From the NCBI GenBank assembly GCA_016932135.1, contig JAFGDJ010000069.1, forward strand, positions 1 through 36,920: 36,920 bases of DNA, read 5' to 3'. Of the stretch, positions 539 through 32,291 are shown piece after piece. The stretch is from Spirochaetales bacterium (GTDB lineage: Bacteria > Spirochaetota > Spirochaetia > JAFGDJ01). Below the pieces are notes generated by a model that had not been told where the DNA came from, searched no databases, and worked only from the letters and a program-made list of their open reading frames with translations. Made by a program: the position numbers and the translations under genes. Position 1 is the first letter of the stretch. The number at the start of each line of letters is the position of its first letter.

Positions 539-996
539 TTGAGTATTCCCTTCTTCAGCCGCCTCAGGCCTCTCAAGCCTACGATCTTATCCGCCGGGTG
601 TACGACGAGTTCGTGGCTCCCGACTATCCGCCGGAAGGAAACGAACACTTCTACACCTTCATTCAGCCGGAGGTTCTCATCCGCCGGTTTTCGGCTCCCG
701 GTCATTTTCTCATCACCGCGGACGAGGGAAACCGGTTAGTCGGCGTTATAGCCGTCCGGGACAACAATCACATCGCCCTGCTGTTCGTGGATAGGGAGTA
801 CCAGAGCCGGGGGATCGCCCGAAAGCTCCTGGCCGAAGCGGAGGAAAGAATCGCCGCCGAAACAGGAAAAAGGCAAGCCACGGTCTTCTCGTCACCCTAT
901 GCCGTTCCTATCTATCAAAAGCTCGGCTTTCAGAACGAAGGGCCGAAGCAGACAAAAGACGGCATCACCTTTCAACCCATGAAACACCTTTTTTAA
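535..996 (+). CDS. GNAT family N-acetyltransferase
   Basis: 153 aa. It carries the acetyl-CoA binding motif QSRGIARKLL (Q/R-x-x-G-x-G/A) and the typical GNAT beta-strand pattern (HIALLFVDREYQ). There is a 4-bp overlap with the upstream ORF. Confidence 0.8.
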   Translation: MIEYSLLQPPQASQAYDLIRRVYDEFVAPDYPPEGNEHFYTFIQPEVLIRRFSAPGHFLITADEGNRLVGVIAVRDNNHIALLFVDREYQSRGIARKLLAEAEERIAAETGKRQATVFSSPYAVPIYQKLGFQNEGPKQTKDGITFQPMKHLF

Positions 997-8880: not shown

Positions 8881-11031
8881 ATGAAAAGGCTGCTCTGTGC
8901 TCTTCTTCTGTTTTGTTCCCTGGGCTATATCAACGCCGAAGAGGTAAATATACAACAGCTGTTTTTTTCCTTTATGAAAGAAACTCAGGATTTTTCCCGA
9001 AATAGTGAAGGATCACCGGAAGAGAAAGCTCTTCTGAAATGGATGACGAAAGAATTAGAGGCTGCAAATATTCCTTATGAAATAAGAGACTTTCAAGAAG
9101 CCCGGGATTTTTTTTCCTTTTCTTCCATCCTTTCCGTCGATATTCCGGGGAAGCGGAATGACACCCTTATCTTTGTGGTACCCATCAACGGTGCCCCGGA
9201 GGCGCAAAATACCGACGGCATGATCAACCTTTCATCGGCTTTCACCGCCTTACAGTATTTTCACCGGCACACCCCGGAGGTCTCGATGAAATTTCTCTTT
9301 CCGGGCGCCGAATACGGACCGGCTCCGGCATATCCCCTGGGCACCCGGTATTTTCTTCGTGATTATTTTGCCGAAGACCCCGCGGCAGTGCTCTATTTCG
9401 ATCTTCAAAGCCCCTCGGAGGGCCTCCGGTTACGGACCGGCGGCGAAAAGATTGTCGCCCCCCGGTGGCTGGTACAGACGATTTCCCAGACCTTGCGAAA
9501 CGCAGGCATTCCCTTCGATTATTCATCCACCGAAGCCCTGACCGCCCGCTTAGGGGTTCTGGACAGTCTTCCTCTCATGGACCCCTTTCTTCAGGCTGGA
9601 TACCCGGCCGTCTTTTTCAAGGGTTTTCCCTCTATGGGAGGGGATGAAACCTGGATTGAACGGTATATCACCTTTCTTACATCCCTTTCCTCGGCATTAC
9701 AGAACGGGATTCCCTCCACCTGGGATCGAAACTACCTTTTTCTCCATTTGCCGGGTCGTGATATTGTTCTGGGCGAGACGACCTTCATCACCAGCCTTAT
9801 CATCCTTTTTTGCTGTCTCCTGGCCTATCCGCTTCTCTTCAGCCGCCCCTTTCGCCGGTATGCCGGAGCGGTGGGGAAACATGCTTACCTGTTGCCGGCC
9901 CTGCTTTCGGCGATATACCTGTTCCTCCTGTTGGGAACCCTGCCGGTACGTCTGATCCCGACTCTTCAAGGTTTCCCCGATATCTGGGAAAGACTCCCGT
10001 TTCAGTATTTCGCTTTGAAATGTACCGGCGCGGTTTTGCTGTTCATGCTGCTGTTTCGCCTGGTACGACATATTCCTTTTCCCCGAAACAGCAGTTTTTA
10101 TTCGGGAGCCGCGATTCTTTTTCTTATCCTGGATATTCTTATACTCAGCACCATGGATATTGCGTTGACGGTTTATGTGGTCTGGGCTTTGTGCTTTGCC
10201 TTCCTGTTCACCCTGATGCCCAATAAATATCTGAAAATCCTCTGTTTTCTTTTATCCATGGTATGGCTTTTCATCATTCTGCACGATCTTTTCACTCTTC
10301 CGGCGATTCGGGTCTGCGGATTTCTTATTCACTCCGTGGTATGGGGGAATCTGCTTATTTCCTTTATCCTTCTCCCCTTCCTGCTCATGCTTCTGCGCAT
10401 CGATCTGCTTTTTGCCCACCCAAAAACTCGCCGGCGGAACATTATCACCCGGAGCACCTTCATTGTCCTTCTCGGTGTTATTGGGTATCTAACCATTACC
10501 CTGGCACTCTACAACCCCTACAGTGAAGATGAACCCCAGCCCCTCTATGTCGCTGAAACCCTGACATCCGGTGGACATCGCGCGGAAATTTCGAGTCCCG
10601 CCGGCCTGAAAGAAATCGGAAGAAACGACCTTTCCATAACCCTCCCGGCGATACCGGCGGAACATTTCCTGGAGACACAGCTGACCACCACCACCTTCCT
10701 GGACCGGATGAACATCTCCCTGGTTTTAAAGCCCGTGGGAACTCCGGAAGAAATTTCCGTTGTCTTCAACTCCCGGGAAAAAACCATCATTTATGACTCT
10801 TCCCATCCCTACTCAGCGGATCCGGATACCCCTTCAATTCTCTTTCACCTGGGGAGGAACCCTCCCGAGAATCTTACCCTGGAAACCACCCTTCCTTCGA
10901 TACAGGAGGGAGTGTTCCATATCACCGCGTCCTATAACCTTCCACCCTTTACCATCCAGCCGGGGGAGGAACCCCTGATGGTTTACCGAACCCTGAAGGT
11001 GGAAAAAACCCTGCCTATAGTCCCGCCGTAA
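8881..11031 (+). CDS. large polytopic membrane protein with a periplasmic degenerate M28-peptidase-like N-domain
   Basis: Signal peptide (MKRLLCALLLFCSLGYINA). A periplasmic domain of about 270 aa has an M28-like block (KFLFPGAEYGP...GTRYFL) whose Glu-Glu is replaced by Glu-Tyr. About 9-10 TM helices span residues ~290-560, and a ~160-aa C-terminal extracytoplasmic domain follows. I recognise no confident family. Confidence 0.6.
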   Translation: MKRLLCALLLFCSLGYINAEEVNIQQLFFSFMKETQDFSRNSEGSPEEKALLKWMTKELEAANIPYEIRDFQEARDFFSFSSILSVDIPGKRNDTLIFVVPINGAPEAQNTDGMINLSSAFTALQYFHRHTPEVSMKFLFPGAEYGPAPAYPLGTRYFLRDYFAEDPAAVLYFDLQSPSEGLRLRTGGEKIVAPRWLVQTISQTLRNAGIPFDYSSTEALTARLGVLDSLPLMDPFLQAGYPAVFFKGFPSMGGDETWIERYITFLTSLSSALQNGIPSTWDRNYLFLHLPGRDIVLGETTFITSLIILFCCLLAYPLLFSRPFRRYAGAVGKHAYLLPALLSAIYLFLLLGTLPVRLIPTLQGFPDIWERLPFQYFALKCTGAVLLFMLLFRLVRHIPFPRNSSFYSGAAILFLILDILILSTMDIALTVYVVWALCFAFLFTLMPNKYLKILCFLLSMVWLFIILHDLFTLPAIRVCGFLIHSVVWGNLLISFILLPFLLMLLRIDLLFAHPKTRRRNIITRSTFIVLLGVIGYLTITLALYNPYSEDEPQPLYVAETLTSGGHRAEISSPAGLKEIGRNDLSITLPAIPAEHFLETQLTTTTFLDRMNISLVLKPVGTPEEISVVFNSREKTIIYDSSHPYSADPDTPSILFHLGRNPPENLTLETTLPSIQEGVFHITASYNLPPFTIQPGEEPLMVYRTLKVEKTLPIVPP

Positions 11032-13407: not shown

Positions 13408-14593
13408 ATATTTTTTTCATGTAGATCTTGACGCTTTTTACGCTTCCGTCGAACAGGCGGATAACCCGGAATACCGGGGCAAGCCGGTGATCATCGGTGC
13501 TTTACCCGGCCATCGGGGGGTTGTAGCCGCCTGCTCCTATGAAGCCCGAAAATTCGGTGTCCACTCAGCCATGCCCATAAGCCACGCCTACCGGCTCTGC
13601 CCCGGGGGAATCTATCTTCCCGTAAGAATGCACCGTTACCAGGAGCTTTCCGGCCGGGTAATGGACATCCTGAAGAACTACACCCCTGCTCTCAGGCAGA
13701 TATCCATCGATGAAGCCTCCATGGATATGTCCGGCACCGCCCGGCTTTTCGGTCCTCCCGAAGAAGCGGCCGCCGGGATAAAAAGAAAGATTCGGGAAGA
13801 GACAGGACTCACCCTGTCCATCGGCATCGCCCCCAACCGTTACCTGGCGAAACTCGCTTCCGAAAAGGATAAACCAGACGGACTGTACGAAATAAAAACG
13901 GGAGAAGAGGAGTCTTTTATTGAAACCCTCGAGTTAAAGGATATCTGGGGTTTAGGGCAGAAGATGAGAGAGCGGCTGACGGAGCTGAACATTCTTACCG
14001 TCCAGGATCTAAAAAAATTTCCCGAGCGAATGCTCAGGGACATGGTAGGCAAGGCTGCCGGTTCCTACCTTTACCGGGTGGTCCGGGGTATCGACCCGGG
14101 GATCTATAACGATAGTCCGAAATCCCGATCCATGAGCAGCGAGATCACCTTTGAACAGGACAGCCGCGACACCGAAGGCATGAAGAACATGCTCCTGGAT
14201 ATATCCCATCAATTGATGTTCAGAATTATGCAGCATGAATACCGGGCGAAGACCGTGGAGTTGAAAATTCGATATGAAGACTTCTCCACCATCAGCGGAC
14301 GAAAAACCGTCCGGCATTATATCAATTCGGCGGAAGAAATATACGCCCTTGCTTTGGAACTCCTGGAAGCCCGGCGGGACTCCTCCCGGGCGGTACGGTT
14401 AATCGGCCTGGGGGTATCCTCCCTGGAAGAGGGGGAAGAACCCGCACAGAAGGAGCTCTTTCAGGATGGCTACGATCGGAAAAAGATGGTGGAAGAGGCG
14501 GTGTTTCGGATGCAGAAACAAGGAAGCGCTGTCGTAAAGGCCAGCCTGCTGAAACAGAAAAACGAAAAAAAGAAGCCCTTTGAACGAAATTAG
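13391..14593 (+). CDS. dinB: DNA polymerase IV (Y-family translesion polymerase)
   Basis: It has an N-terminal catalytic block (FFHVDLDAFYASVEQ...VIIG...VVAACSYEARKFGVHSAMP) and a little-finger domain. The only in-frame start candidate is TTG 13391, which overlaps the upstream gene end by 17 bp. Confidence 0.9.
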   Translation: MKNVSKYFFHVDLDAFYASVEQADNPEYRGKPVIIGALPGHRGVVAACSYEARKFGVHSAMPISHAYRLCPGGIYLPVRMHRYQELSGRVMDILKNYTPALRQISIDEASMDMSGTARLFGPPEEAAAGIKRKIREETGLTLSIGIAPNRYLAKLASEKDKPDGLYEIKTGEEESFIETLELKDIWGLGQKMRERLTELNILTVQDLKKFPERMLRDMVGKAAGSYLYRVVRGIDPGIYNDSPKSRSMSSEITFEQDSRDTEGMKNMLLDISHQLMFRIMQHEYRAKTVELKIRYEDFSTISGRKTVRHYINSAEEIYALALELLEARRDSSRAVRLIGLGVSSLEEGEEPAQKELFQDGYDRKKMVEEAVFRMQKQGSAVVKASLLKQKNEKKKPFERN

Positions 14594-15534
14594 CTTTCCC
14601 AGGTGGAAAGAATTGTCCGGGCCCTGCCAAGATCGTGTTTTTCCAGGGGAGTCAAAAAAGCCCGGAAGGTCAGATCTTGGATAACTTCTCGCAGGATTTT
14701 TTTAGCCTCCTCCCGGTCGGAGATGGCTTCGATATCTACAATCCCCTCATAGTAACAATTCTTTAAAAATATATCCTCGCGAGATTCATACGACGAAGCC
14801 ATGCTCTTCCATTCCCGCTGTCTCCTGGCGATAGTCCAGTCTCTTGCCCAAAGGTGATTTGCCAGTTCGATGTAAAATCCATATCGGACTCCTGGAGCCG
14901 CTCCTGAGGCTATTTCTGCCCTGTTGGCTTCCAGGGACTTTCGCCCCAGGGAGACAGCGTAGGCCTTGTTTCCGAAACTCAAAGGAAAACCCGGCAGTAC
15001 TTGGTACAGGATACCCAGAACATACCAGGTGTCGCCGTGGTCGCCGTACATCCGCACCACCGTTGAAAGGAGATCCCGCACTGTTTTCGCCTGGAACAGG
15101 GCGTTCAGAATACCCTTCGCCTGAGCCCACCTGGCCAGGCTGGAAGCCTTCCAGAAATATCCCTGCCAGGCGTCCGGATTGAGACGCAGGGCCTGGTCTG
15201 CGTATTCCTCTCCCCGGGAATACCAGGTAAGGAGTTCCTCTGCCGTGGCTCCCTGTTCATACCTTTCATCCCCCGAGTCGAGACTGTGCCTGGCCAAACG
15301 CCAGTAGATCGCCCAGGTTTCTGAACTGTAGGCCGGATCGTCCAGGGCTCCCAGGAGCAGTTCAAAAGCTTCCTCATGCCGCCGTTCTGCATAGAGCTCA
15401 TCGGACCTGGAAAGAGGATCTTCCGCCGCCAGGAAACCCGGGCTTTGGAAAAAGAGAAGAAGTATACAGAAAGGCAAAAGAACCTGTCGAGGGCAATTTA
15501 AAATCATGCTCCATGGTAGTTTCGGAAGAAACAA
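14590..15534 (-). CDS. exported TPR-like/helical-repeat hypothetical protein
   Basis: Signal peptide (MILNCPRQVLLPFCILLLFFQSPGFLA/AE). The rest is helical and Trp/Tyr-rich, consistent with TPR-like repeats. The likely true start is ATG 15507 rather than TTG 15534. Confidence 0.6.
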   Translation of the reverse strand: MFLPKLPWSMILNCPRQVLLPFCILLLFFQSPGFLAAEDPLSRSDELYAERRHEEAFELLLGALDDPAYSSETWAIYWRLARHSLDSGDERYEQGATAEELLTWYSRGEEYADQALRLNPDAWQGYFWKASSLARWAQAKGILNALFQAKTVRDLLSTVVRMYGDHGDTWYVLGILYQVLPGFPLSFGNKAYAVSLGRKSLEANRAEIASGAAPGVRYGFYIELANHLWARDWTIARRQREWKSMASSYESREDIFLKNCYYEGIVDIEAISDREEAKKILREVIQDLTFRAFLTPLEKHDLGRARTILSTWES

Positions 15535-19848: not shown

Positions 19849-19879
19849 CCCCCCTGACTTCCCGGCCGTTGGGGGGCTT
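19849..19879. terminator. C7/G6 hairpin between convergent CocE and the ferritin-like gene
   Basis: CCCCCCC...GGGGGG is followed on the + strand by a T-rich CTTAATTCTCTTTC. The loop is long (~18 nt), so this is a weak candidate. Confidence 0.25.
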
Positions 19880-20333
19880 AATTCTCTTTCAGTATATGCT
19901 CATCGTAGAGAGATTCGAACCTCAGCTTGTGGCCTGCCTCTTCGGAGGCAATGCGCAGAAGAAGCTTCTCCGTGTCGGTTCCGGAAACCCGGGAAGCCAG
20001 ATTCGTATACAGCCGAAAGGAAGCCTCTTCCCGTTTCATAGCCAGAATCAGGATATCCTGGTAATCCATTTCAGCCTCCGGCTTTTCCGGTGTAACCAGG
20101 TACTCACTGATTTTCAGGTCCGTCACCTTTTTCGGCTCCAGGTCCCGGAGTTCCTTTTTCTCCAGACCTTCCAGCACGGTAATATGGCCCATCTCCATGG
20201 CTTCCAGTTCAAAGAGCATAGTCTTCATACTTTTGAAGCCGGCTTTTTCTTGTAATCCCCGGTAAAAGGCTGCCGCCTCTTTTTCCCGCTCAATGGCAAA
20301 GGACAGAATCTCCCGGACTGTGCTATCAGCCAT
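19878..20333 (-). CDS. ferritin-like/rubrerythrin-family diiron four-helix-bundle protein (no rubredoxin domain)
   Basis: It has two E-x-x-H metal-binding motifs (ELEAMEMGH, SEEAGH) about 90 aa apart in a 151-aa helical protein. It sits 29 bp downstream of the large Fe-S flavoprotein and is the last gene of the same-strand block. Confidence 0.7.
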   Translation of the reverse strand: MADSTVREILSFAIEREKEAAAFYRGLQEKAGFKSMKTMLFELEAMEMGHITVLEGLEKKELRDLEPKKVTDLKISEYLVTPEKPEAEMDYQDILILAMKREEASFRLYTNLASRVSGTDTEKLLLRIASEEAGHKLRFESLYDEHILKEN

Positions 20334-20362: not shown

Positions 20363-23300
20363 TTATAGGAGAAGCGCATTCCGGATCTCCTCCCTGTCCT
20401 GCGCCCCCTGACGCAGGGGAGAACGGCCGGAAGGCTCACTGTATCCCTCGATCCAATACTTCAGGGGAACCGGAATATGAAGATCCACATGGGTGTTGTC
20501 CCCGCCCCATCGGATCACTCTTCGGTTATCGTTGCTTTCAAGATTCCCCCCGACATCAAGAATCAGGTCAAAGTCTTCCATGCCACCGCTATTACCAATT
20601 TCTTCCGGGGATTCTCTTTCTCCCAGGGATTTCAAGAGGTACCAGGAATTCCGGGCGTTCCAGAAAAGAGTCACTCTGATTTTTTGCCAGGTACTGGCTT
20701 CCCCGATGGATTGAATGAGCCGGTTTTCCGTGTCCCGCTCACAGCAGACATGGAGATCCTCCGGATTGATCAAGATGTCCACCATCCGCCGTTCAAACTG
20801 GGCGTACTGCAGAGCATCGTCCAGGGATGATAGGTTCGGGAAGACCCGATCCGCCGTACGCTGAACTGCCGGGCCGTTATCTCCTACAACCCAGAGGGTG
20901 AAATAACCGGCTTTTTTCATCCGGTAGGCTTCGGTGAAGGCAACGTTATTCGAATCGTAGAGGGTTCCCAGAACCAAGGCTGCCCGGCGTTGCGGATCGA
21001 TGCCTGTATCTTCGAAGAAATAGTGGGTCTCCAGATTAAATGGTCTTCGCCCGTTCTTTGTCGACAAACTACTTTCCGGTAAGCCGCCCTTTCCGAGATT
21101 GTTTAACTCTATCCAACTGGGATTGATGTGCTCAAGGCCGATGGGCCTGACCACACAACCAAGTTCCCCCGCTCGAGCAAGAAAATAATCAATAACCTCC
21201 CCGCTCAAGAAAGGAGATATCCGCATAAGGACCTTTTTTGACTCTTTCATATAGGAATCCATCAGTCCGGAGGCTTTCTTCCTCTCCAGGTTTCCATCAG
21301 GGGTCGAGCAAATTCCCTTCCCATTGGATTGATTCTGCAAAATGAAAGTGTTCTGGAACCTGCCTCGTTCACAAAGAATACCGCCGTAGGTATCGAAACG
21401 TTCGGTAATCCGGGTAAAAAGACTTCCGTGAGAACGGTATTCCACCGGGCAGCTGACGGAGCACATAGGGCAGTAACCGGGAGTAACCTCCTCTTCCAAG
21501 GGCACTGTTTTTCCGGAAGGAAATTTTTCCGTCAGGGCACCCACGGGACAGGCGGAGACGCATTGACCGCAGCTTATACAAAGATCCACTTCACCGAAGG
21601 GGCTGCCAAAAGACGGTTCGATATGGGAAGCGAATCCCCGTTTCACATAGCCCAGGACCCCCAGCCCCTGGACCTCCTGACAGATCCGGACGCAACGACC
21701 GCAAAGGATGCACTTGGAGGGATCGCGGACAATATACGGATGGCTCTTATCCACCGGGTGAACTTGAAAGTCACCCACAAAACGATCAATCCGGGCTTCG
21801 TATTCCTGGGCATACTCTTTGAGTTTACATTCATGCACATCCTGACAGCCGCACTCCAGGCAGCGACGGGCTTCGATCAGAGCCTGTTCGTCGGTATACC
21901 CCATTTCGATTTCCGAAAATGACCGCCTCCGGCGCTCTAAGGGAATCTTCGGCATTGTTTGTCGGGGGAGTTTCTCTTCATCCTCCAGATCTTCCGCCGT
22001 TACCGGCCGCAGATCCGATTTTCTCACCAGGAATTCGGCCTTCCGCTCAACCTGCAGACCGGCAAAGAACATTCCGATAGACGCCGCTGCGTGTTTTCCG
22101 CCGGCGATAGCCCGAATGGCAATGTCCGGACCGGTAACCACATCTCCCGCGGCAAAAAGCTTGGGGATCGCCGTCGCTCCGGTTTCCTTGTCACAGACGA
22201 TGTTGCCCCGTTCATCCACCAGGCCTTCCGCTGTTTTTAAGGAACTCGTGTCGGTATACTGCCCGACGGCGGCGATAACCGTGTCCACCTCCCAGGAAAA
22301 ATCAGCTCCTTCCACCGGTACAGGACGCCGCCTGCCTGAAGGATCTGGTTCCCCCAGTTCCATGGTGATCAAATGCAGTTCCAGAGGATTGTTTCTCCCC
22401 TTGGTGATTTTCGAAGGAGCCGCCAGATAGGTTATACGGATTCCTTCCTCCAGGGCTTCTTCAATCTCCATATCGGAGGCAGGCATTTCCTCCCTGCTCC
22501 GTCGATAGAAAATCTGCACATCATCGGCTCCCAGTCGCAAGGAAGTTCTGGCGGCATCAATAGCGGTATTCCCCCCGCCAATAACGGCGACCTTTCGGCC
22601 GATCTTCGGATGGTTTCCCTCCGCCACACCCCGTAGCATGTCGATACCCGGCAGGACACCCGGCAGATCCTCCCCGGCGATCCGCATCTCCCGGCTTTGC
22701 CAGGCTCCCAGGGCGAGAAGAACAGCATCGTTTTCTTTTAGCAAGGTTTCAAGTTCCAGCTCCGTCCCCAGACACTTACCGCAGATTAAAGAAACACCGA
22801 GATCGGTAATAAGGGCAATTTCTTTATCCAGAACATCCTGAGGCAGCCTATAATCCGGTATACCGTACCTGAGCATACCGCCGGCTTTCTCCTGGGCTTC
22901 ATAGACCGTAACCTCCGTCCCCGCTTGTTTTAAATAGTACGCCGCCGATAAGCCGGCCGGTCCGCCGCCGATGACAGCTACCTTCTTGCCGTTCGAAGGA
23001 GCGACTTCCGGCTTCCAGGGATTGCCGGAGAACAAGTCAATGTCGGCGATATACCGCTTGAGATAATCGATCCCCACCGGTTCATCTACTATATTCCGCC
23101 GGCATTCATCCTCACAGGGACGGGGGCAAACCCGACCGCAGACCGATGGAAAGGGGTTGTTCTTTTTCACCAGCTTCAGGGCTTCGGCGTTTTTACCATA
23201 GGCAATCAGCCCCACATAACCCTGCACGTCGATATTGGATGGACAAGCCAGGGTGCAGGGAGCCTTACAGTCGCCGTAATGGTTGGAGAGGATCAGTTCA

Positions 23301-23584
23301 AAAGCCAGCTTCCTGGCCTGGCGGACCTCTTCATCATCCGTTACAATCTTCATCCCCGGTCTTACCTGGGTAGCGCAGGAGGGGACGAATCCCTTAGCTC
23401 CTTCCACCTTTACCAGACAGACCCAACAGGACCCATAGGGTTCCAGGCGACGGTCATCACAAAGAGTCGGTATATGGAGGCCCTGTTCCCGGGCTGCCTG
23501 GAGGATAGTCACTCCCTCGAAAACCGCACATTCTTTCCCGTTGATATGTACCTGAATTAATTTTCTCCCGCCGTTGGTCATCAT
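20363..23584 (-). CDS. mosaic Fe-S flavoprotein: a 2Fe-2S ferredoxin N-domain, an NfnB/GltD-like NAD(P)H-FAD module, a 2x[4Fe-4S] ferredoxin domain and a degenerate molybdopterin-oxidoreductase-like C-domain (StnC-like large subunit)
   Basis: aa 1-85 form a plant-type 2Fe-2S domain (CDDRRLEPYGSCWVCLV...SCAT). aa ~100-165 hold GltD/NfnB N-terminal clusters (GDCKAPCTLACP; FPSVCGRVCPRPCEDEC). Two Rossmann motifs (KKVAVIGGGPAGLSAAYYL; RKVAVIGGGNTAIDAART) and AAGDVVTGP indicate FAD and NAD(P)H binding. A CLECGC/HEC segment precedes two CxxCxxCxxxCP ferredoxin motifs. A MopB-type motif (CPMCSVSCP...GGILCERGRF) follows, and after it about 400 aa with no catalytic hydrogenase or Mo signatures. Its start ATG overlaps the upstream gene's stop (ATGATGA). 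Confidence 0.85.
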   Translation of the reverse strand: MMTNGGRKLIQVHINGKECAVFEGVTILQAAREQGLHIPTLCDDRRLEPYGSCWVCLVKVEGAKGFVPSCATQVRPGMKIVTDDEEVRQARKLAFELILSNHYGDCKAPCTLACPSNIDVQGYVGLIAYGKNAEALKLVKKNNPFPSVCGRVCPRPCEDECRRNIVDEPVGIDYLKRYIADIDLFSGNPWKPEVAPSNGKKVAVIGGGPAGLSAAYYLKQAGTEVTVYEAQEKAGGMLRYGIPDYRLPQDVLDKEIALITDLGVSLICGKCLGTELELETLLKENDAVLLALGAWQSREMRIAGEDLPGVLPGIDMLRGVAEGNHPKIGRKVAVIGGGNTAIDAARTSLRLGADDVQIFYRRSREEMPASDMEIEEALEEGIRITYLAAPSKITKGRNNPLELHLITMELGEPDPSGRRRPVPVEGADFSWEVDTVIAAVGQYTDTSSLKTAEGLVDERGNIVCDKETGATAIPKLFAAGDVVTGPDIAIRAIAGGKHAAASIGMFFAGLQVERKAEFLVRKSDLRPVTAEDLEDEEKLPRQTMPKIPLERRRRSFSEIEMGYTDEQALIEARRCLECGCQDVHECKLKEYAQEYEARIDRFVGDFQVHPVDKSHPYIVRDPSKCILCGRCVRICQEVQGLGVLGYVKRGFASHIEPSFGSPFGEVDLCISCGQCVSACPVGALTEKFPSGKTVPLEEEVTPGYCPMCSVSCPVEYRSHGSLFTRITERFDTYGGILCERGRFQNTFILQNQSNGKGICSTPDGNLERKKASGLMDSYMKESKKVLMRISPFLSGEVIDYFLARAGELGCVVRPIGLEHINPSWIELNNLGKGGLPESSLSTKNGRRPFNLETHYFFEDTGIDPQRRAALVLGTLYDSNNVAFTEAYRMKKAGYFTLWVVGDNGPAVQRTADRVFPNLSSLDDALQYAQFERRMVDILINPEDLHVCCERDTENRLIQSIGEASTWQKIRVTLFWNARNSWYLLKSLGERESPEEIGNSGGMEDFDLILDVGGNLESNDNRRVIRWGGDNTHVDLHIPVPLKYWIEGYSEPSGRSPLRQGAQDREEIRNALLL

Positions 23585-25971: not shown

Positions 25972-26337
25972 TTACATTGATCTGGTCGCTACCAGATTAA
26001 CTCCCGTTCCACCGATATTCGCCAGCAACACCTGCCCGGTTTCCACCGGCAAGGGGATCTTCATGGAGTAGAGGGTGTCAAGAAGGCTATCAATATGTTC
26101 CTTTGGAAGGGGTGCGTCGGTTTTCACCGACACACGACGTACCTCCGTCCCCATTGGAGAGCCTGCCGTCATGCATGTGGCCGTAACAACCCGCTTAGGT
26201 GCGAGCACTTCTTCCCTTCCATAGATCTCGCCCCGGGGGCATTGATTGCCTTCAATAGTGATATCCGTTTCATCAGTCCAGGAAGCTTGCAGCCGGCAAC
26301 CGATGGGGCAGGATATACAAATCAACTGGCGTTCCAA
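25972..26337 (-). CDS. DUF1667-family Cys-rich small protein (zinc-ribbon/Fe-S-like partner of GlpA-like dehydrogenases)
   Basis: It has LICISCPIGCRL...GNQCPRGEIY and the conserved VTTTV-like block (VVTATCMTAG). I propose a TTG start at 26335-26337, preceded by GGAAAGGAGAG with a 5-nt spacer, giving a canonical ~121-aa protein. The track ORF (to 26457) would overlap the upstream gene by 100 bp. Confidence 0.75.
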   Translation of the reverse strand: MERQLICISCPIGCRLQASWTDETDITIEGNQCPRGEIYGREEVLAPKRVVTATCMTAGSPMGTEVRRVSVKTDAPLPKEHIDSLLDTLYSMKIPLPVETGQVLLANIGGTGVNLVATRSM

Positions 26338-26356
26338 AGCTTCTCTCCTTTCCTGG

Positions 26357-27613
26357 TTACAGGATACCCGTTTCAAGGGTATTCCCCCTTGAGGATTCAA
26401 GAGATGGGATTTCTTCCCTATCCAAGGTAAAACTGACCATTTCAGAAGGTTGTACATGCCGAAGTTTCTTCCGTATAACCTCCCGGCCTTCGATTTTTAC
26501 CACCAGTTCGGCACCATTTTTAACAACTAAGGGCCGAAGGTAAAACCTGTTGTCGCCATCGGGGTTATACATATTAGGTAGGACATACTTCACATTGGCT
26601 CCGGAGACCGTTCTGTATTGACGGCCCGGGGCTACTCCTTTGAGATAATGACAGACTGCTTCTCCACAACGCTGAGATTCCTCAGTAACGAAATCCACCA
26701 GGTCATGCACATGAAGCACATTTCCACAGGCGAAAATCCCTTCCACCGATGTCATAAGACGAGAATCTACCAGAGCCCCACCGGTTTCAGGATTAAGATC
26801 AACACCGGCTTTTTTTGAGATTTCATTGTCCGGGACCAGGCCTACGGAAAGAAGCAGGGTGTCGCAGTCCAGATCAAAGGAAGCTCTGTTCCCACCTTCC
26901 TCCGTCCCCACCGGAGATACCCGGACTCCCTCTACCCGTTCTTTTCCCCAAATTTTCGAGACTACATGGGAAAGATGCAGAGGAATATTGAAATCCGTGA
27001 GACATTGCACGATATTTCGGGTCAGCCCGGCTGGATAGGGTTGAATTTCCACTACTCCAAGTACCTCCGTCCCCACCCAGGTCATGCGGCGGGCCATAAT
27101 GAGACCAATATCTCCGGAACCGACGATGACTATCTTTTTGCCGGGGATATAACCGTCAATATTAACCAGCCTTTGGGCCAGACCGGCGGTAAAGATCCCC
27201 GAAGGCCTGGTGCCGGGGGTACCGATATTCCCGCGATTCCGCTCCCGGCAGCCCATGGCCAGCACAATGGAACGACAGGAAAAATGGAGCAGCCCATAGA
27301 CGGATGAGTACCCGTAAAAGCTCTTCATCGATCCTGTATCTTCTATATCCATTACCGTCGTCTCAAGATAGACATCCAGGCCTTTATCCTTCACCGCTTG
27401 AATAAACCGTTCGGCATATTCAGGCCCCGTCAATTCCTCCTTAAAGTGGTGGAGCCCGAACCCGTTGTGGATGCATTGATTGAGGATGCCACCCAAGGCT
27501 GTCTCGCGTTCCACTATAGCGCAGGAATAACCCGCTTCGGCGATTCTGCACGCGGCGGCCATACCAGCCGATCCTCCGCCGATAATGACGGAGTCATATT
27601 TTTTCTCCGTCAT
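26357..27613 (-). CDS. NAD(P)/FAD-dependent oxidoreductase (pyridine nucleotide-disulfide oxidoreductase family; HcnB/OoxA-like middle subunit)
   Basis: There are two dinucleotide-binding motifs (SVIIGGGSAGMAAACRIAE; KIVIVGSGDIGLIMARRM) and a C-terminal part with ACGNVLHVHDLVD. The gene overlaps the glpA-like gene by 4 bp. Confidence 0.85.
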   Translation of the reverse strand: MTEKKYDSVIIGGGSAGMAAACRIAEAGYSCAIVERETALGGILNQCIHNGFGLHHFKEELTGPEYAERFIQAVKDKGLDVYLETTVMDIEDTGSMKSFYGYSSVYGLLHFSCRSIVLAMGCRERNRGNIGTPGTRPSGIFTAGLAQRLVNIDGYIPGKKIVIVGSGDIGLIMARRMTWVGTEVLGVVEIQPYPAGLTRNIVQCLTDFNIPLHLSHVVSKIWGKERVEGVRVSPVGTEEGGNRASFDLDCDTLLLSVGLVPDNEISKKAGVDLNPETGGALVDSRLMTSVEGIFACGNVLHVHDLVDFVTEESQRCGEAVCHYLKGVAPGRQYRTVSGANVKYVLPNMYNPDGDNRFYLRPLVVKNGAELVVKIEGREVIRKKLRHVQPSEMVSFTLDREEIPSLESSRGNTLETGIL

Positions 27614-29082
27614 TCCTTTCCTCCGGTTCTCGAGAAAATTTGAAATTCTCCAACCCGGCCGGTAATTTCCCAGGACCCGGCACCTCGCTTTGTTATTTCA
27701 TCCACGGAAAGACCGGTCTCCCTCTGAATTATTTTTAGTATTTTATAGGTACAAAACCCACCCTGGCAGCGACCCATCTGGGCACGGGTATAAAATTTGA
27801 TACCATCTAAGGTTGTATGGCCTTTTTTTATGGCTTCTACTATTTCAGCCTCTGAAATTGATTCACAGCGGCAAACAATATTTCCATAAGACGGATTTTT
27901 TTCTATCAGTTTTTCCGCTGTAAAGGGATCAACTTCCCTAATTCTGGGAAGCGGATCGATAGCGGGGTCGTAATTCGGCTTTTCTTCAAGAATCAATCCT
28001 GCTTTTTTCAGGAGATCCTTTACATATTCGCCAATGGCCGGAGCAGCAGTGAGCCCCGGAGATTGGATGCCCGCCGCCTGAACAAGTTTGGGGCACTTCG
28101 TCGATATGGCGATATAAAAATCATTGCCTTCAAGGGCGGGTCTCAGCCCCACAAAAGCCGTAATAATATCCCGCTCTGAAACCGAAGGCACCAATCGTCT
28201 GGCGGAATAGAAAACCTTTTCAAAGTTATCCCCCGTGGTTGCCAGATCCTCCTTATCCTCAATTTCCTCTGCCGTAGGGCCGACCATCGTTGTTCCTTCC
28301 ACTGTCGGAATAACCAACATTCCCTTGGAGTTTGGACTGGGAACAGGAAAGATCACTCGGCTCGTAAAAGCCGCGGCATTCCGATCCATCAGGTATTCCT
28401 CTCCTTTTCTCGGGGAAATGGTAAACTCCTCCGCCTTAAAAAGTTTCGATATCTCATCAGCCCGGAGCCCGGCGGCATTCACCGCATATCTACTGGTAAC
28501 AGTTTCACCATTAACGGAAGAAATATGGAATCTTTCTCCCGTTATATCTACTCCATTAACCTTAAACTTGGTTTTCAGTTCTACGCCATTCTTTACAGCA
28601 GACTCGACTAAGGAAAAAACAAGACGGTAGGGTTCGACTATACCTCCGGAGGGTGCATGGAGCCCACCAACCACATCCCGGTTGAGTTTAGGCTCTAAAG
28701 AAAGCATCCTTTCCCGGTTACAGAGTTCGATACCGATGCTTCCGTTCTGCACACCCTGCATATAGAGCTTTTCTACAGTTTTCATTTCCTCGAAGGAAAG
28801 AGCTGCCACGAGAATACCGCATCGACGAAAGGGGAAATGCAGGTCCCTCTGCAGGGCATCGAACATTATATTCCCCTGGATTTCCAAGCGAGACTTCAAC
28901 GTGGATGCACCATGATGAAAACCACCGTGAATAATCCCGGAATTGGCTTTGGATACTCCGAAGGAGACGTCACATTCTTTCTCTAAAAGAACAACCCGCA
29001 GCTTGTATGCGGAAAGGCGCCTCGCAATAGAAGCCCCGGTGACTCCCGCACCGATTATGGCGACATCATAAACACTACTCAT
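27610..29082 (-). CDS. glpA: FAD-dependent glycerol-3-phosphate dehydrogenase-like oxidoreductase (GlpA/GlpO family) with C-terminal BFD-like [2Fe-2S] domain
   Basis: It has a DAO-type N-terminus (DVAIIGAGVTGASIARRL...GIIHGGFHH) and GlpA/GlpO-like central blocks. A C-terminal BFD-like Cys motif is present (CRCESISEAEI...GRCQGGFC). Glycerol kinase lies nearby on the same strand. An SD (GGAGGTG) precedes ATG 29082. Confidence 0.8.
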   Translation of the reverse strand: MSSVYDVAIIGAGVTGASIARRLSAYKLRVVLLEKECDVSFGVSKANSGIIHGGFHHGASTLKSRLEIQGNIMFDALQRDLHFPFRRCGILVAALSFEEMKTVEKLYMQGVQNGSIGIELCNRERMLSLEPKLNRDVVGGLHAPSGGIVEPYRLVFSLVESAVKNGVELKTKFKVNGVDITGERFHISSVNGETVTSRYAVNAAGLRADEISKLFKAEEFTISPRKGEEYLMDRNAAAFTSRVIFPVPSPNSKGMLVIPTVEGTTMVGPTAEEIEDKEDLATTGDNFEKVFYSARRLVPSVSERDIITAFVGLRPALEGNDFYIAISTKCPKLVQAAGIQSPGLTAAPAIGEYVKDLLKKAGLILEEKPNYDPAIDPLPRIREVDPFTAEKLIEKNPSYGNIVCRCESISEAEIVEAIKKGHTTLDGIKFYTRAQMGRCQGGFCTYKILKIIQRETGLSVDEITKRGAGSWEITGRVGEFQIFSRTGGKE

Positions 29083-29328: not shown

Positions 29329-29841
29329 TTACTGATTAACATCTAATAAAAAAAGACCATATTGTGAAATCTGATCAGGTGGTTCTAAAAGCTCATATAC
29401 ATTTTCCTGGATAAATCTTATTCCATTATATGTATATTCGAAACAATATTGTACTAAACCAGCTCGAACGGGATTTAGGGCGATATATAAGAAAGTATTA
29501 AGTAACTGATAATAACCTTCAGTAATCGTACTTCTGAACCGATCATACCACACATGCCCATGAATCTCATATATTTTATTAAATTGAATTGCAAAAACAC
29601 TAAGTATCCATTGCATTATTTTAGAAAGGCTTTCCTTTTTACCCGGTCTAATCATGAGATGGACATGGTTACTCATGATGCAAAAATTTCTAATTTTAAA
29701 ATCATACTTTTTTTTCGCTCTTTGAAGCACGTGAAGGAAAAGCTCCTTCACGTGATCCGACTCTAAGATAAACTCCTGCCTATTAGCTCGCGCAGTAACG
29801 TGATACTCTGCGCCTGGCATTGTTCGTCTCGGGTATCTCAT
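29329..29841 (-). CDS. REP-associated tyrosine transposase-like protein (RAYT, IS200/IS605 Y1 HuH family, COG1943)
   Basis: Signature blocks are present: MPGAEYHVTARANRQEFIL (PGxxYHVTxRxN), an HuH motif SNHVHLMI, GHVWYDRF, and YIALNPVRAGLV, which matches the TnpA_REP C-terminus. I preferred the ATG at 29841 (MRYPRR) to 29973, which would overlap the divergent MMPL start. The local GC is low. Confidence 0.8.
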   Translation of the reverse strand: MRYPRRTMPGAEYHVTARANRQEFILESDHVKELFLHVLQRAKKKYDFKIRNFCIMSNHVHLMIRPGKKESLSKIMQWILSVFAIQFNKIYEIHGHVWYDRFRSTITEGYYQLLNTFLYIALNPVRAGLVQYCFEYTYNGIRFIQENVYELLEPPDQISQYGLFLLDVNQ

Positions 29842-29954
29842 ACTGGATATATACGTTGTTATAAGGCTGTTTGCTTCAAAAATAATAAATTTCGATATGT
29901 AATCCTCCGTCCCCCTAATAGACAGCTTCTTTACTTTTCTGTTACAAAAGAAAT

Positions 29955-32291
29955 ATGGCCATGGATAAAGCAAGACATTCTATTTTTCAATTTTCTTCAA
30001 ATCATCCAAAGCTTATTATTATAATCACCTTGCTACTAACGGTCTTTTTCGCCTTTTTTGCCCTTCGTATTAATATTAATGCTGATTATGCCAGCCTCCT
30101 GCCGGAAGACACCCTGGTAAATCAGCAAATAAAAGAGTTCAGTGGCGATAAACCTGAATCGGAACTCTTTGTCCTGGCAATAAAAGGGGAAAACCTCTTT
30201 ACAAAAACGATTCTATCTAGTTTAAACGATACTATTAATACCTTGGGGGACCTCCCGGAAGTTCAATCTGTCATTTCACCCTTCAATTTCGTCATCTTTG
30301 AACGATCCCCCAGCGGGAGGCTGATCATTGGGAAAACTTTTAATAAATCAGATTCTTTGGGGACGGAGGAAGGAGTTACAGCCTTTACTTCCAGATTGTT
30401 TGACTCCTCCTTCGCCGAGAACCTGGTAGTCTCTAAAGATCGTAAAATGCTCAATGCCTTCTTTTTCCTGGAACGCAGTGATGAGTATGGTGCCTTCCTT
30501 TCGGAGGTGAATAAAGTATCTAAAAACCTTTCCGAGATCGGAGTTTCCGTTCATACCAGCGGTCTGGTTGTTTTGAACGAAAGAACCCGCTTTTATATCA
30601 CCCGGGATGTCTCGATTCTAATCATTCTGGCAATAATGATTGTCATCGCGTTCTACTTTCTTACTTTTCGTACCGGTAAAGCGGTATTCATGCCAATTTT
30701 CGTAGTACTCTTCGGTACCGTTTGGTCCATAGGGTTTATGAGCCTCATGAACTACTCTTTAACCCTCATCAGCATTGTTGCTCCGCCTTTAATTCTTATC
30801 TTTGGGAATGAATACGCTATCTACGTCATGAGTGAATATTACCGCCTTGTAGGACATCATAACGAACACTCTGCTTTCATGGGGACGGAGGTTATACCTA
30901 CCACTACAAAAAACGTCACCAAACCTATCATTCTCGCCTTTATTACCACAGTCATTGGGTTTTTAAGCCTCTATGTCACGGACATAAAACAAACCCAGGA
31001 GTTTGCCCTGGTTGCCAGTTTCGGTTCTCTATCCTGCGGGGTTATCTCTCTCTTCTTTCTGCCGGCTCTTCTGTCATTGGCACCCCTTGGCGAGAAAAAA
31101 GATGCGTCTCTAAGGGGATACAATCCTGTAATTAAAAGGCTATCCGCTTTAGCATCAAACCACCCTCGCGCTGTTCTGCTTGTTATGCCTGTTTTTATTC
31201 TAGCCTTTGCCTTTTCCCTCCAATTCCTTCAGTTCAATACCGATTCAATCAATTATTTTCCTAAGAAGGATCCGGCCATTAAGGACATGTATGTGCTGAC
31301 CGAAGCAATTGGAGGGTTCGATGAAATAAACGTTACCTTTCTTGCCCCCGAAGGTACTAAAGGGTACTTCAACGACCCAATATTATTAGAAAAGCTTTTA
31401 AAACTCGAGAAGGATCTGAAAGCTCATCCGGATGTGTGCTATGCCCTGTCTTTCCCCTCCTATCTTGAAGAGATCCATAGGGTTATGGGGAGTCCTCCGG
31501 ATACTCAGTTCTCCCGGGGTCTTGTCCTTCTGCTTACACGGCTGCTTAAAGCAGCCGCAGCCGATGAAAGCATGGGCGGGGCTCTGGATATCCTCTTTAA
31601 CGAAGATTTTACCCGTCTTACCCTGAACATGAGGATTTATAATAGTACAACCGGTCACTTTATAGACGAATATCGATTCAGGGAGTTTCTCTCCTTTCTG
31701 AAAGACACCTTAAAGGAACATGGTTTTCAAGAGGATGATGCCGTTATCTGGGGAGAGATCATGCGCAATCTTCATCTGGCGGACTCCCTCCGGGGTTATC
31801 TGCTGATATCGATGGTGATATCCCTCGGGTTAATCCTTATTATTACTTCCGTCACGTTTCGTTCAGTTCTCTACGGCCTGTACGCGGTCCTCCCTTTAGC
31901 CCTGGGTCTAATGCTCAATTTTGTCCTGATGGCCCTCTTCAAGATACCCCTGGATATGACTACCATTATGGTCTCGAATGTTACCATCGGTGTGGGTATA
32001 GATAACGCGTTTTACCTGGTGGTGCAGTACCGCAGATCACTGCAAAACAACCATAAATCCTTCTCTGTTTTGATTCATGAAACCCTGGAGGTCATTCTGC
32101 GGCCCACGGTACTGTCGACTCTTTCCATTGCCCTGGGATTGATGGTTTTTCTCCTGGCGGCTTTCAAACCTATTGTTTATTTCGGTATGCTGGTCATTTT
32201 TTCTCTCACCGCCACGGCGGCCTGTACATTAATTGTGCTTCCGGCGATATTGTATTTCGACTCAATAAAAAGAAAGGTTACGCCTAAATAA
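29955..32291 (+). CDS. MMPL/RND-superfamily exporter (COG1033-like, two 6-TM bundles each with a large extracytoplasmic loop)
   Basis: 778 aa. A TM helix and ~170-aa loop are followed by 5 TM; a second TM and loop are followed by 5 more TM. It has an SSD-like arrangement (GIDNAFYLVVQY). The gene has low GC. Confidence 0.8.
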   Translation: MAMDKARHSIFQFSSNHPKLIIIITLLLTVFFAFFALRININADYASLLPEDTLVNQQIKEFSGDKPESELFVLAIKGENLFTKTILSSLNDTINTLGDLPEVQSVISPFNFVIFERSPSGRLIIGKTFNKSDSLGTEEGVTAFTSRLFDSSFAENLVVSKDRKMLNAFFFLERSDEYGAFLSEVNKVSKNLSEIGVSVHTSGLVVLNERTRFYITRDVSILIILAIMIVIAFYFLTFRTGKAVFMPIFVVLFGTVWSIGFMSLMNYSLTLISIVAPPLILIFGNEYAIYVMSEYYRLVGHHNEHSAFMGTEVIPTTTKNVTKPIILAFITTVIGFLSLYVTDIKQTQEFALVASFGSLSCGVISLFFLPALLSLAPLGEKKDASLRGYNPVIKRLSALASNHPRAVLLVMPVFILAFAFSLQFLQFNTDSINYFPKKDPAIKDMYVLTEAIGGFDEINVTFLAPEGTKGYFNDPILLEKLLKLEKDLKAHPDVCYALSFPSYLEEIHRVMGSPPDTQFSRGLVLLLTRLLKAAAADESMGGALDILFNEDFTRLTLNMRIYNSTTGHFIDEYRFREFLSFLKDTLKEHGFQEDDAVIWGEIMRNLHLADSLRGYLLISMVISLGLILIITSVTFRSVLYGLYAVLPLALGLMLNFVLMALFKIPLDMTTIMVSNVTIGVGIDNAFYLVVQYRRSLQNNHKSFSVLIHETLEVILRPTVLSTLSIALGLMVFLLAAFKPIVYFGMLVIFSLTATAACTLIVLPAILYFDSIKRKVTPK

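Follow-up and report, generated by a model that had tools for sequence, protein, structure and literature searches.

A NfnA/StnC-like large subunit with a vestigial MopB tail encoded in an uncultured spirochaete

Heterotrimeric electron-bifurcating transhydrogenases, known as NfnABC or StnABC, form a family that is described, widespread and structurally solved (Kremp 2020, PMC7483475; Kumar 2023, PMC10482914; PMC11829005; PMC12018979). In the large subunits NfnA of Caldicellulosiruptor saccharolyticus (Csac; 9BOV/9BP5) and StnC of Sporomusa ovata (Sov; 8OH5/8OH9), a [2Fe-2S] domain is followed by an NfnL/GltD-type FAD/NADPH insert, a CxxCxC cluster, two ferredoxin clusters, the MopB Fe4S4 cluster and a cofactor-less Fdh/NuoG-like domain without the domain-IV barrel. 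A reduced Fdh/NuoG-like tail is also present in NfnA of Thermococcus sibiricus (Tsi; 9N5U/9N5V) and NsoC of T. litoralis. The complexes of S. ovata and Csac are tetramers and that of Tsi is a monomer, and the published table of StnC homologues spans 898-1241 aa, including two of 1071 aa. Spirochaetota are not among the Stn/Nfn-Bfu hosts listed in the 2020 or 2022 surveys.

The window, a stretch of 36,920 nt from a Spirochaetales bacterium (contig JAFGDJ010000069.1), encodes a protein of the same domain order and with the same kind of reduced tail (Table 1). The earlier note had called this architecture unusual, which does not hold in view of the family described above.

Table 1. Features of the nfnA locus with residue ranges, window coordinates and supporting evidence
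Feature	Position	Strand	Evidence
nfnC/stnA-like gene (BfuC; NuoE-like [2Fe-2S] subunit), 151 aa	25349..25804	minus	Pfam 2Fe-2S_thioredx 7.6e-49
nfnB/stnB-like gene (NuoF-like, BfuB-type), 591 aa	23581..25356	minus	Pfam Complex1_51K, NADH_4Fe-4S, Fer4
nfnA/stnC-like gene (BfuA subunit), 1073 aa	20363..23584	minus	ORF, PDB sequence matches, AF2 model
N-terminal [2Fe-2S] domain, residues 8-84, Cys 42, 53, 56, 70	23333..23563	minus	Pfam Fer2_4 1.6e-18; 4 Cys invariant in 119 homologues
GltD/NfnL-type two-[4Fe-4S] region, residues 106-182, Cys 106, 110, 114, 153, 157, 161; Lys 176	23039..23269	minus	Pfam Fer4_20 1.3e-22 (GltD/DPD-type clusters)
FAD/NADPH-binding flavoprotein module, residues 200-496	22097..22987	minus	Pfam Pyr_redox_2 4.7e-33; GGGPAG 206, GGGNTA 336, YRR 360-362, AAGD 478
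CxxCxCx5C cluster motif, residues 575-586	21827..21862	minus	Motif search; 4 Cys invariant
Two ferredoxin-type [4Fe-4S] motifs, residues 616-685, Cys 625, 628, 631, 635 and 669, 672, 675, 679	21530..21739	minus	Pfam Fer4_Nqo3 6.6e-09; 8/8 Cys invariant
MopB domain I, N7/A5-type [4Fe-4S], residues ~698-750, Cys 705, 708, 712, 738	21335..21493	minus	Cys invariant; PF04879 precomputed in many homologues
Cofactor-less remnant of MopB domains II/III, residues 751-1073	20366..21334	minus	Without domain IV, conserved Cys or Mo ligand
Ferritin-like di-iron protein gene, 151 aa	19878..20333	minus	Pfam Rubrerythrin 8.8e-12; two ExxH motifs; PDB matches 2fzf_A, 1vjx_A

An uninterrupted gene in a conserved three-gene unit

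The mosaic 1073-aa subunit proposed earlier, with its strand left unstated, is confirmed by a single ORF that starts with ATG and runs without an internal stop. An identical protein (P0012) is recorded for a MAG named Spirochaetales bacterium, and the architecture is common to more than 119 homologues (1007-1160 aa) across 97-100% of the length. Against PDB sequences, the protein matched Csac NfnA (9bov_A, 2e-217), S. ovata StnC (8oh5_C, 4e-210) and Tsi NfnA (9n5u_A, 1e-200), all solved as single chains with the identical domain order and collinear with residues 8-748. Additionally, the full-length AF2 model was aligned with these three chains end to end by Foldseek (~1100 columns), although the loops that bind the clusters (residues 100-113 and 600-694) were modelled with low confidence. 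Separate ORFs joined by a frameshift or misassembly, a possibility raised in the earlier note, were therefore rejected.

The gene is the last of a three-gene unit, bfuC-bfuB-bfuA (nfnC-nfnB-nfnA), in which nfnC and nfnB overlap by 8 bp and the nfnB stop and nfnA start share the 4 bp ATGA. Both partner products matched solved subunits over their full lengths: 9bov_B (9e-252, residues 7-585 of 591), 9n5u_B (7e-250) and 8oh5_B (2e-242) for NfnB, in which Pfam Fer4 was located at 531-583, and 9n5u_C (4e-51), 9bov_C and 8oh5_A for NfnC. A genome scan for related loci, seeded with the alignment of residues 560-1073, showed the C-B-A order to be kept in about 80 loci, spread over Spirochaetota, Cloacimonadota, Clostridia, Calditrichota and further phyla. 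When the operon region was scanned for promoters and terminators, the counts stayed at the level of shuffled sequence.

Domain order, cluster ligands and the predicted electron path

The Pfam matches follow the order claimed in the earlier note and, together with the PDB matches, bear out that a flavoprotein module of the GltD/NfnB type is inserted into an Fe-S scaffold of the NuoG/HydA type. The inserted module (~100-510) resembles GltD and the NfnB/NfnL subunit of NfnAB (NfnSL), with two [4Fe-4S] clusters and FAD and NADPH Rossmann folds. Its flavoprotein part matched NfnB (4ylf_B, 5e-93) and NfnI-L (5jca_L, 9e-84), and its motifs are invariant in the family. The CxxCxCx5C motif, also noted in StnC/NsoC (PMC7483475), lies where the GltD insert returns to the NuoG scaffold. 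By contrast, NuoG/Nqo3/NDUFS1 of complex I (especially Aquifex aeolicus NuoG, 7Q5Y) lack the GltD/FAD insertion and are part of a membrane-bound, non-bifurcating complex; most NuoG/Nqo3 proteins also keep the C-terminal barrel domain that is missing here.

The motifs quoted earlier were found at their places, namely GDCKAPCTLACP at 104, CGRVCPRPCEDEC at 149, CLECGCQDVHEC at 575, CISCGQCVSACP at 669 and CPMCSVSC at 705 with the fourth Cys at 738, besides the three glycine- or alanine-rich motifs of the flavoprotein module (Table 1). Both ferredoxin motifs that had been written as CxxCxxCxxxCP exist, but the CP ending applies to the second only and not to the first (CILCGRCVRICQ). Judged by alignment, all 26 of the 26 cluster cysteines stand in the motifs expected for clusters A1-A7 (one [2Fe-2S] and six [4Fe-4S]) and are 100% conserved in the 119 homologues. 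The GltD-type clusters have six invariant cysteines and K176, whereas C149 is only 17% conserved. K176, a putative cluster ligand, is invariant in 45 aligned homologues and occupies the alignment column of the Lys in the Sov, Csac and Tsi chains; this Lys is described as a ligand of the A7 cluster that is conserved in all NfnABC (PMC12018979, PMC11829005). The spirochaete clade and Tsi NfnA share, in addition to the Lys, a Val ('...SDVQGY') in place of the extra Cys that Csac and Sov carry in the GltD-type region. Tsi NfnA (963 aa) lacks the Cys of the A4 cluster and has a still shorter tail, whereas the window protein keeps both ferredoxin-type motifs.

The locus agrees with NfnABC of C. saccharolyticus and StnABC of S. 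ovata in the ligand set for seven clusters, the putative Lys ligand, the C-B-A operon and the partner subunits. Based on the match of residues 8-748 to solved chains, the partner matches, the gene order, the invariant cysteines and K176, the ORF very probably encodes the BfuA-type large subunit (NfnA = StnC) of a heterotrimeric electron-bifurcating transhydrogenase NfnABC/StnABC. The likeness to StnC suggested earlier is upheld by the 8oh5_C match, the equal domain order and the partner subunits.

By analogy with the solved homologues, the binding site of NADP(H) would be at the FAD in the GltD/NfnL-like insert. Electrons would pass singly from the Lys-ligated [4Fe-4S] cluster (K176 and three Cys) to the second GltD-type cluster and the CxxCxCx5C cluster, and then through one ferredoxin-type cluster and the N-terminal [2Fe-2S] cluster to the NfnB/NfnC core, where FMN and adjacent clusters may couple NAD+/NADH to ferredoxin. 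The net physiological reaction would be NADH + reduced Fd + 2 NADP+ -> NAD+ + oxidised Fd + 2 NADPH. The FAD of NfnSL is the site of bifurcation, and the proximal cluster there has a Glu ligand; the FAD of NfnABC does not bifurcate, and Lys replaces Glu as the ligand (PMC12018979).

The degenerate C-terminal tail

The tail had been described as a degenerate MopB-like domain, which is borne out by its fold, profile homology and missing ligands, and as equal in length to the rest of the protein, which is not so. No Pfam match was found at ~690-1073; this region comprises 335 aa past C738, or 384 aa from residue 690, and accounts for about one third (31-36%) of the protein. Specifically, the tail showed no match to PF00384 (domains II/III) or PF01568 (domain-IV cap) at E<=0.01, and in the alignment of 119 homologues no Cys after C738 is conserved, nor is there a Sec or another candidate for the Mo ligand. 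Such a ligand, a Cys, Sec, Ser or Asp, would be expected ~100 residues past the Fe4S4 motif; residues 801-850, where it would fall, are the least conserved part (22% identity, 31% gaps), and the AF2 model is disordered at 833-852. The chain ends ~20 residues past PSGR (1051-1054), without a barrel or domain IV.

Compared with Csac NfnA and S. ovata StnC, the spirochaete tail is shorter by ~100 aa (499 vs about 600 aa, counted from the CxxCxC motif to the C-terminus) and goes undetected by phmmer and PF00384, whereas Firmicute-type tails score 1e-29 to 1e-35. Detection by PF00384 is graded, being positive in Firmicutes and Calditrichota, marginal in Cloacimonadota and undetectable in Spirochaetota. 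Searched against PDB sequences, the tail HMM profile matched StnC, NfnA, NuoG and FdhF across the ~698-750 stretch and reached only its first ~126 positions; homology beyond them is drawn from the profile-profile alignment (hhalign) with PF00384-positive tails, which extends to about residue 918, and from fold comparison. The latter indicates that the predicted tail retains the fold of MopB domains I-III.

The tail is accordingly a vestigial MopB domain (NuoG/Fdh-like), in which domain I with its [4Fe-4S] cluster and the Rossmann-like domains II/III are kept, and domain IV, the pterin site and the metal ligand are lost. Despite low overall identity, several of its motifs are strongly conserved (SNNVAFTE 878-885, WNxRN 975-979 and PSGR 1051-1054), which indicates constraint that a pure remnant would not account for. 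The tail alignment offered no stretch conserved enough to seed a genome scan. A search with the tail only returned 11 proteins, some of them seemingly stand-alone (Fer4 + Molybdop_Fe4S4 + tail, ~540 aa). The one such match whose context was examined (P0009) was rejected as one fragment of an stnC broken up by frameshifts in a MAG built from long reads.

The tail was said earlier to have no assigned function, which overlooks two descriptions. The FdhF-like domain of S. ovata StnC is inactive, carries off-pathway clusters and is needed for tetramer assembly (PMC10482914), and Csac NfnA has an incomplete pterin site, its branch being termed an 'evolution remnant' (PMC11829005). Likeness to the StnC, Csac and Tsi tails is recognisable for only about 120 residues, so a role for the tail is extrapolated from the fold alone. 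By this analogy, it most likely serves as a structural scaffold that holds the off-pathway cluster branch and packs against NfnC/NfnB, not as a catalytic site, and it is possibly involved in oligomerisation.

The ferritin-like neighbour, other enzyme types and meaning

A ferritin-like gene lies 29 bp downstream of nfnA on the same strand. It is found at the same position in three related Spirochaetota loci (L001, L004 and L005) and partially in a fourth (L007), and is possibly an accessory gene of this sub-clade. This neighbour raises the question of whether the 'dead-end' branch and the MopB remnant form a live electron outlet to a partner, either the ferritin-like protein (peroxide or O2 reduction) or an upstream trio, GlpA-like/Pyr_redox_2/DUF1667, which resembles glycerol-3-phosphate dehydrogenase. 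In Cloacimonadota and Marinimicrobia, homologues of the ferritin-like protein are clustered with oxidative-stress genes for Fur, flavodiiron protein, AhpC, desulfoferrodoxin, rubrerythrin and rubredoxin; Bfu-rubrerythrin (Rub-Bfu) enzymes were predicted by Schut et al.; an 'overflow electron pool' role was raised for the branch in Csac (PMC11829005); and the conserved tail motifs are polar. However, the ferritin-like gene is absent beside nfnA in the more distant Spirochaetota loci (L002, L006 and L008-L021) and in 60 of 60 non-spirochaete loci, and its adjacency could reflect mere co-regulation of NADPH supply with oxidative-stress defence. Only L001 and L007, the two closest relatives, have the trio beside nfnA, and functional coupling to it was rejected on this ground. 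We consider such an outlet improbable. A specific form of it, in which the ferritin-like protein of the sub-clade docks on the MopB remnant as a fourth component and draws electrons from A2-A4-A5, thereby coupling NAD(P)H/ferredoxin oxidation to peroxide or O2 reduction, seems quite improbable; if true, a branch regarded as vestigial in all three structural papers would gain a function.

An enzyme of the SfrAB/Nso type, a non-bifurcating oxidoreductase that uses NADPH to reduce ferredoxin, Fe(III) or sulfur, would share modules with Nfn-Bfu, as SfrAB also pairs GltD-like and NuoG-like modules and NsoABCD was originally reported as a sulfur reductase (cited in PMC7483475, PMC10482914). This is highly improbable here, because translational coupling links the gene to those of a NuoE-like subunit and a complete BfuB-type NuoF-like subunit, which match bifurcating NfnC and NfnB over their full lengths, the NfnABC-specific Lys is present, and Nso is now itself regarded as Nfn-Bfu. 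An active formate dehydrogenase, an [FeFe] hydrogenase catalytic subunit or a chimera is already refuted as far as sequence and fold can show: homologues are labelled 'formate dehydrogenase major subunit' in some sources, but the 1073-aa protein contains no H-cluster motif by regex search (TSCCP(xW), MPCxxK or (Ex)MACxxGC(xxG)) and no Fe-hydrogenase Pfam domain, the tail lacks the Mo-enzyme features listed above, the homologues and solved single chains match end to end, and Stn has no formate dehydrogenase activity (PMC7483475).

The NfnABC/StnABC assignment is a real but ordinary finding, that of a known three-subunit enzyme balancing NADH, NADPH and ferredoxin in anaerobes, and leaves the understanding of this enzyme class unchanged. 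For uncultured Spirochaetota, it suggests a probable redox-balancing role (NADH + reduced ferredoxin -> NADPH) for an operon labelled only 'FAD-dependent oxidoreductase' or 'formate dehydrogenase major subunit'. Meanwhile, a gradient of MopB-remnant decay is documented within one enzyme family, which helps avoid false formate dehydrogenase annotations.

NfnA/StnC identity and gene cluster

The nfnA-like ORF is not an artefact: its 1073 codons run without interruption, and more than 119 homologues of 1007–1160 aa span 97–100% of the protein, which argues against the frameshift or assembly error considered in the earlier note. An identical database protein (P0012), named 'FAD-dependent oxidoreductase', comes from a Spirochaetales MAG and lies on the same contig. 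Four Pfam domains were located, and residues ~690–1073 had no Pfam match. Every motif quoted in the earlier note was found at its expected position, except that only the second of the two ferredoxin motifs read as CxxCxxCxxxCP has the CP ending. No H-cluster motifs were detected in the ORF by motif search.

Features of the nfnA-like ORF and its surroundings
Feature	Position	Strand	Remark
ORF	8881-11031	+	716 aa; no Pfam match
ORF	14590-15534	-	314 aa; no Pfam match
Ferritin-like/rubrerythrin-type di-iron protein gene	19878-20333	-	151 aa
nfnA-like ORF	20363-23584	-	1073 aa
GlpA-like/Pyr_redox_2/DUF1667 trio	25972-29082	-	
IS200-like Y1 transposase ORF	29329-29973	-	Pfam Y1_Tnp, 8e-17
Fer2_4	residues 8-84		Pfam
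[2Fe-2S] motif	Cys 42, 53, 56, 70		Cys 100% conserved
Fer4_20	residues 106-182		Pfam
GltD-type region	residues 106-161 (23102-23269)	-	Cys 106, 110, 114, 153, 157, 161, 100% conserved
Pyr_redox_2	residues 200-496		Pfam
CxxCxCx5C motif	residues 575-586		Cys 100% conserved
Fer4_Nqo3	residues 616-685		Pfam
Two ferredoxin motifs	residues 625-635 and 669-679		Cys 100% conserved
MopB-type motif	Cys 705, 708, 712, 738		Cys 100% conserved
PSGR motif	residues 1051-1054		

ORF residues 8–748 matched the PDB sequences of Caldicellulosiruptor saccharolyticus NfnA (9bov_A, 2e-217), Sporomusa ovata StnC (8oh5_C, 4e-210) and Thermococcus sibiricus NfnA (9n5u_A, 1e-200), and a full-length AlphaFold2 model (pLDDT 76.6) aligned with these chains over ~1100 columns. 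Directly upstream, genes for a 151-aa NuoE-like and a 591-aa NuoF-like protein overlap each other by 8 bp, and the latter overlaps nfnA by 4 bp. The NuoF-like protein matched NfnB/StnB over its full length (E about 1e-250), with its thioredoxin-like N-terminal domain and its di-cluster C-terminal domain both covered; the NuoE-like protein matched NfnC/StnA. The C-B-A gene order was present in ~80 loci from Spirochaetota, Cloacimonadota, Clostridia, Acetobacterium, Syntrophomonas, Calditrichota and others. The protein belongs to a known enzyme family with solved structures, of which it is a new representative from Spirochaetota. The earlier note had correctly called it StnC-like, with a degenerate MopB tail.

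It is not 'unusual', however, since previous work had shown that a 'mosaic' architecture and a degenerate tail characterise the family. When describing StnABC, Kremp et al. 2020 (PMC7483475) pointed out that GltD and NuoG parts are fused, detected no formate dehydrogenase activity, and listed StnC homologues of 898–1241 aa (two of 1071 aa) from Firmicutes, Proteobacteria, Synergistetes and Euryarchaeota. Additionally, the pterin site is incomplete in the C. saccharolyticus structure (PMC11829005), and NfnA proteins lack the barrel of Nqo3 and FdsA (PMC12018979).

Conservation of cofactor ligands

Conservation of Cys was scored across 119 full-length homologues. K176 was also invariant among the aligned homologues and aligned with the lysine of the solved chains, a ligand specific to this family that binds the FAD-proximal cluster; bifurcation is lost when this lysine is mutated (PMC12018979, PMC11829005, PMC10482914). 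Because these Cys motifs and K176 are kept, the protein is predicted to carry all seven clusters of the S. ovata and C. saccharolyticus enzymes; T. sibiricus NfnA, by contrast, has no A4 cluster. For the two GltD-type clusters, just six Cys and K176 are invariant, as in T. sibiricus, whereas C. saccharolyticus and S. ovata have an extra Cys ('TDC') where the window clade and T. sibiricus show Val. C149 was conserved in only 17% of homologues.

A cofactor-less MopB remnant at the C-terminus

Homologue identity fell from 45–76% at residues 1–750 to 22–36% at residues 751–1073. No conserved Cys was found after residue 738 among the 119 homologues, and residues 801–850, where the Mo ligand would fall, were the least conserved and most gapped stretch. 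Against PDB sequences, the tail profile matched StnC, NfnA, NuoG and FdhF over its first ~126 positions only. A separate AlphaFold2 model of residues 690–1073 was confident (pLDDT 85.2, pTM 0.86), with alternating beta/alpha elements, and Foldseek gave TMq values of 0.55–0.69 with NuoG/NDUFS1, 0.64 with C. saccharolyticus NfnA and 0.57 with StnC. In addition, hhalign related the tail profile to non-spirochaete homologue tails (97.9% probability, 202 columns). The PSGR motif, ~20 residues before the chain end, was taken to correspond to the 'ADVVLP...E..GT' segment of MopB; the tail has no domain-IV barrel and gave no PF01568 match. Given the MopB fold and profile similarity without conserved Cys or domain IV, the tail is a cofactor-less MopB remnant. 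Its unmatched part (335–384 aa) amounts to roughly a third of the protein rather than half as the earlier note had estimated, and a function had already been assigned: in StnC the FdhF-like domain is catalytically inactive, carries two off-pathway clusters and mediates tetramerisation, and its deletion blocks assembly (Kumar et al. 2023, PMC10482914). In T. sibiricus the tail is shorter and the enzyme monomeric (PMC12018979).

Counted from the CxxCxC motif to the chain end, the tail is 499 aa long in the window protein, 439–506 aa in Spirochaetota, ~525–570 aa in most Cloacimonadota, ~590–604 aa in Clostridia, Acetobacterium and Syntrophomonas, and 667–681 aa in Calditrichota and Dethiobacter. 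PF00384 covered Firmicute and Calditrichota tails over the whole model (1e-29 to 1e-35), was marginal on the Cloacimonadota tail (7.5e-5) and did not match Spirochaetota tails; PF01568 was found in none of the family tails tested. The window tail as tblastn query matched Spirochaetota loci only, and the N-terminal 689 aa showed 44–53% identity to matches in all phyla. The short, PF00384-negative and Spirochaetota-confined tail thus places the protein at the diverged extreme of the decay gradient known for the family.

Cloacimonadales chromosomes (L026–L028) encode NfnA homologues of 881–1000 aa with very short tails (312–430 aa from the CxxCxC motif); unlike at other loci, NuoE/NuoF-like genes were not detected within 7 kb upstream. 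In some long-read Spirochaetota MAGs (L003/L015, contig_29247, and L006), nfnB/nfnA were broken into 2–3 called genes by apparent frameshifts. A 'stand-alone' tail protein (P0009) was rejected as a spurious product of frameshift-split genes in a long-read MAG.

Neighbouring genes and predicted electron path

A trio of genes that shares the strand of nfnC lies directly upstream of it, across a 167-bp gap. The trio encodes a GlpA-like protein (DAO plus BFD [2Fe-2S]), a Pyr_redox_2 flavoprotein and a DUF1667 protein, and presumably resembles the archaeal/Thermotoga-type glycerol-3-phosphate dehydrogenase complex. This synteny was found in the two closest relatives only (L001 and L007). The transposase ORF has the Glp-like cluster on one side and, on the other, an MMPL-family transporter gene in divergent orientation.

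The ferritin-like gene, 29 bp downstream of nfnA, encodes a protein with two ExxH motifs and no rubredoxin domain. The gene occupied the same place in relatives whose NfnA is at least 56% identical (L001, L004, L005 and partly L007); among the loci compared, it was not found next to nfnA in more distant Spirochaetota or other phyla. Homologues elsewhere occur in oxidative-stress clusters of Cloacimonadota and Marinimicrobia (L087, L088). The arrangement recalls the predicted 'Rub-Bfu' enzymes; Schut et al. 2022 had predicted Bfu-rubrerythrin enzymes.

By homology, we infer that the complex is a bifurcating transhydrogenase in which the inserted module's FAD would be the reaction site for NADP(H). 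Electrons would pass via the Lys-ligated cluster and four others to the flavin-cluster site of NfnB/NfnC, where NAD would be coupled to ferredoxin. The tail, together with its MopB-type cluster, would branch off this pathway and play a structural part. In C. saccharolyticus the A2-A4-A5 branch was regarded as a remnant of evolution or perhaps an overflow pool (PMC11829005). Going by gene adjacency alone, the ferritin-like protein is a conceivable but improbable outlet for this 'dead-end' branch.
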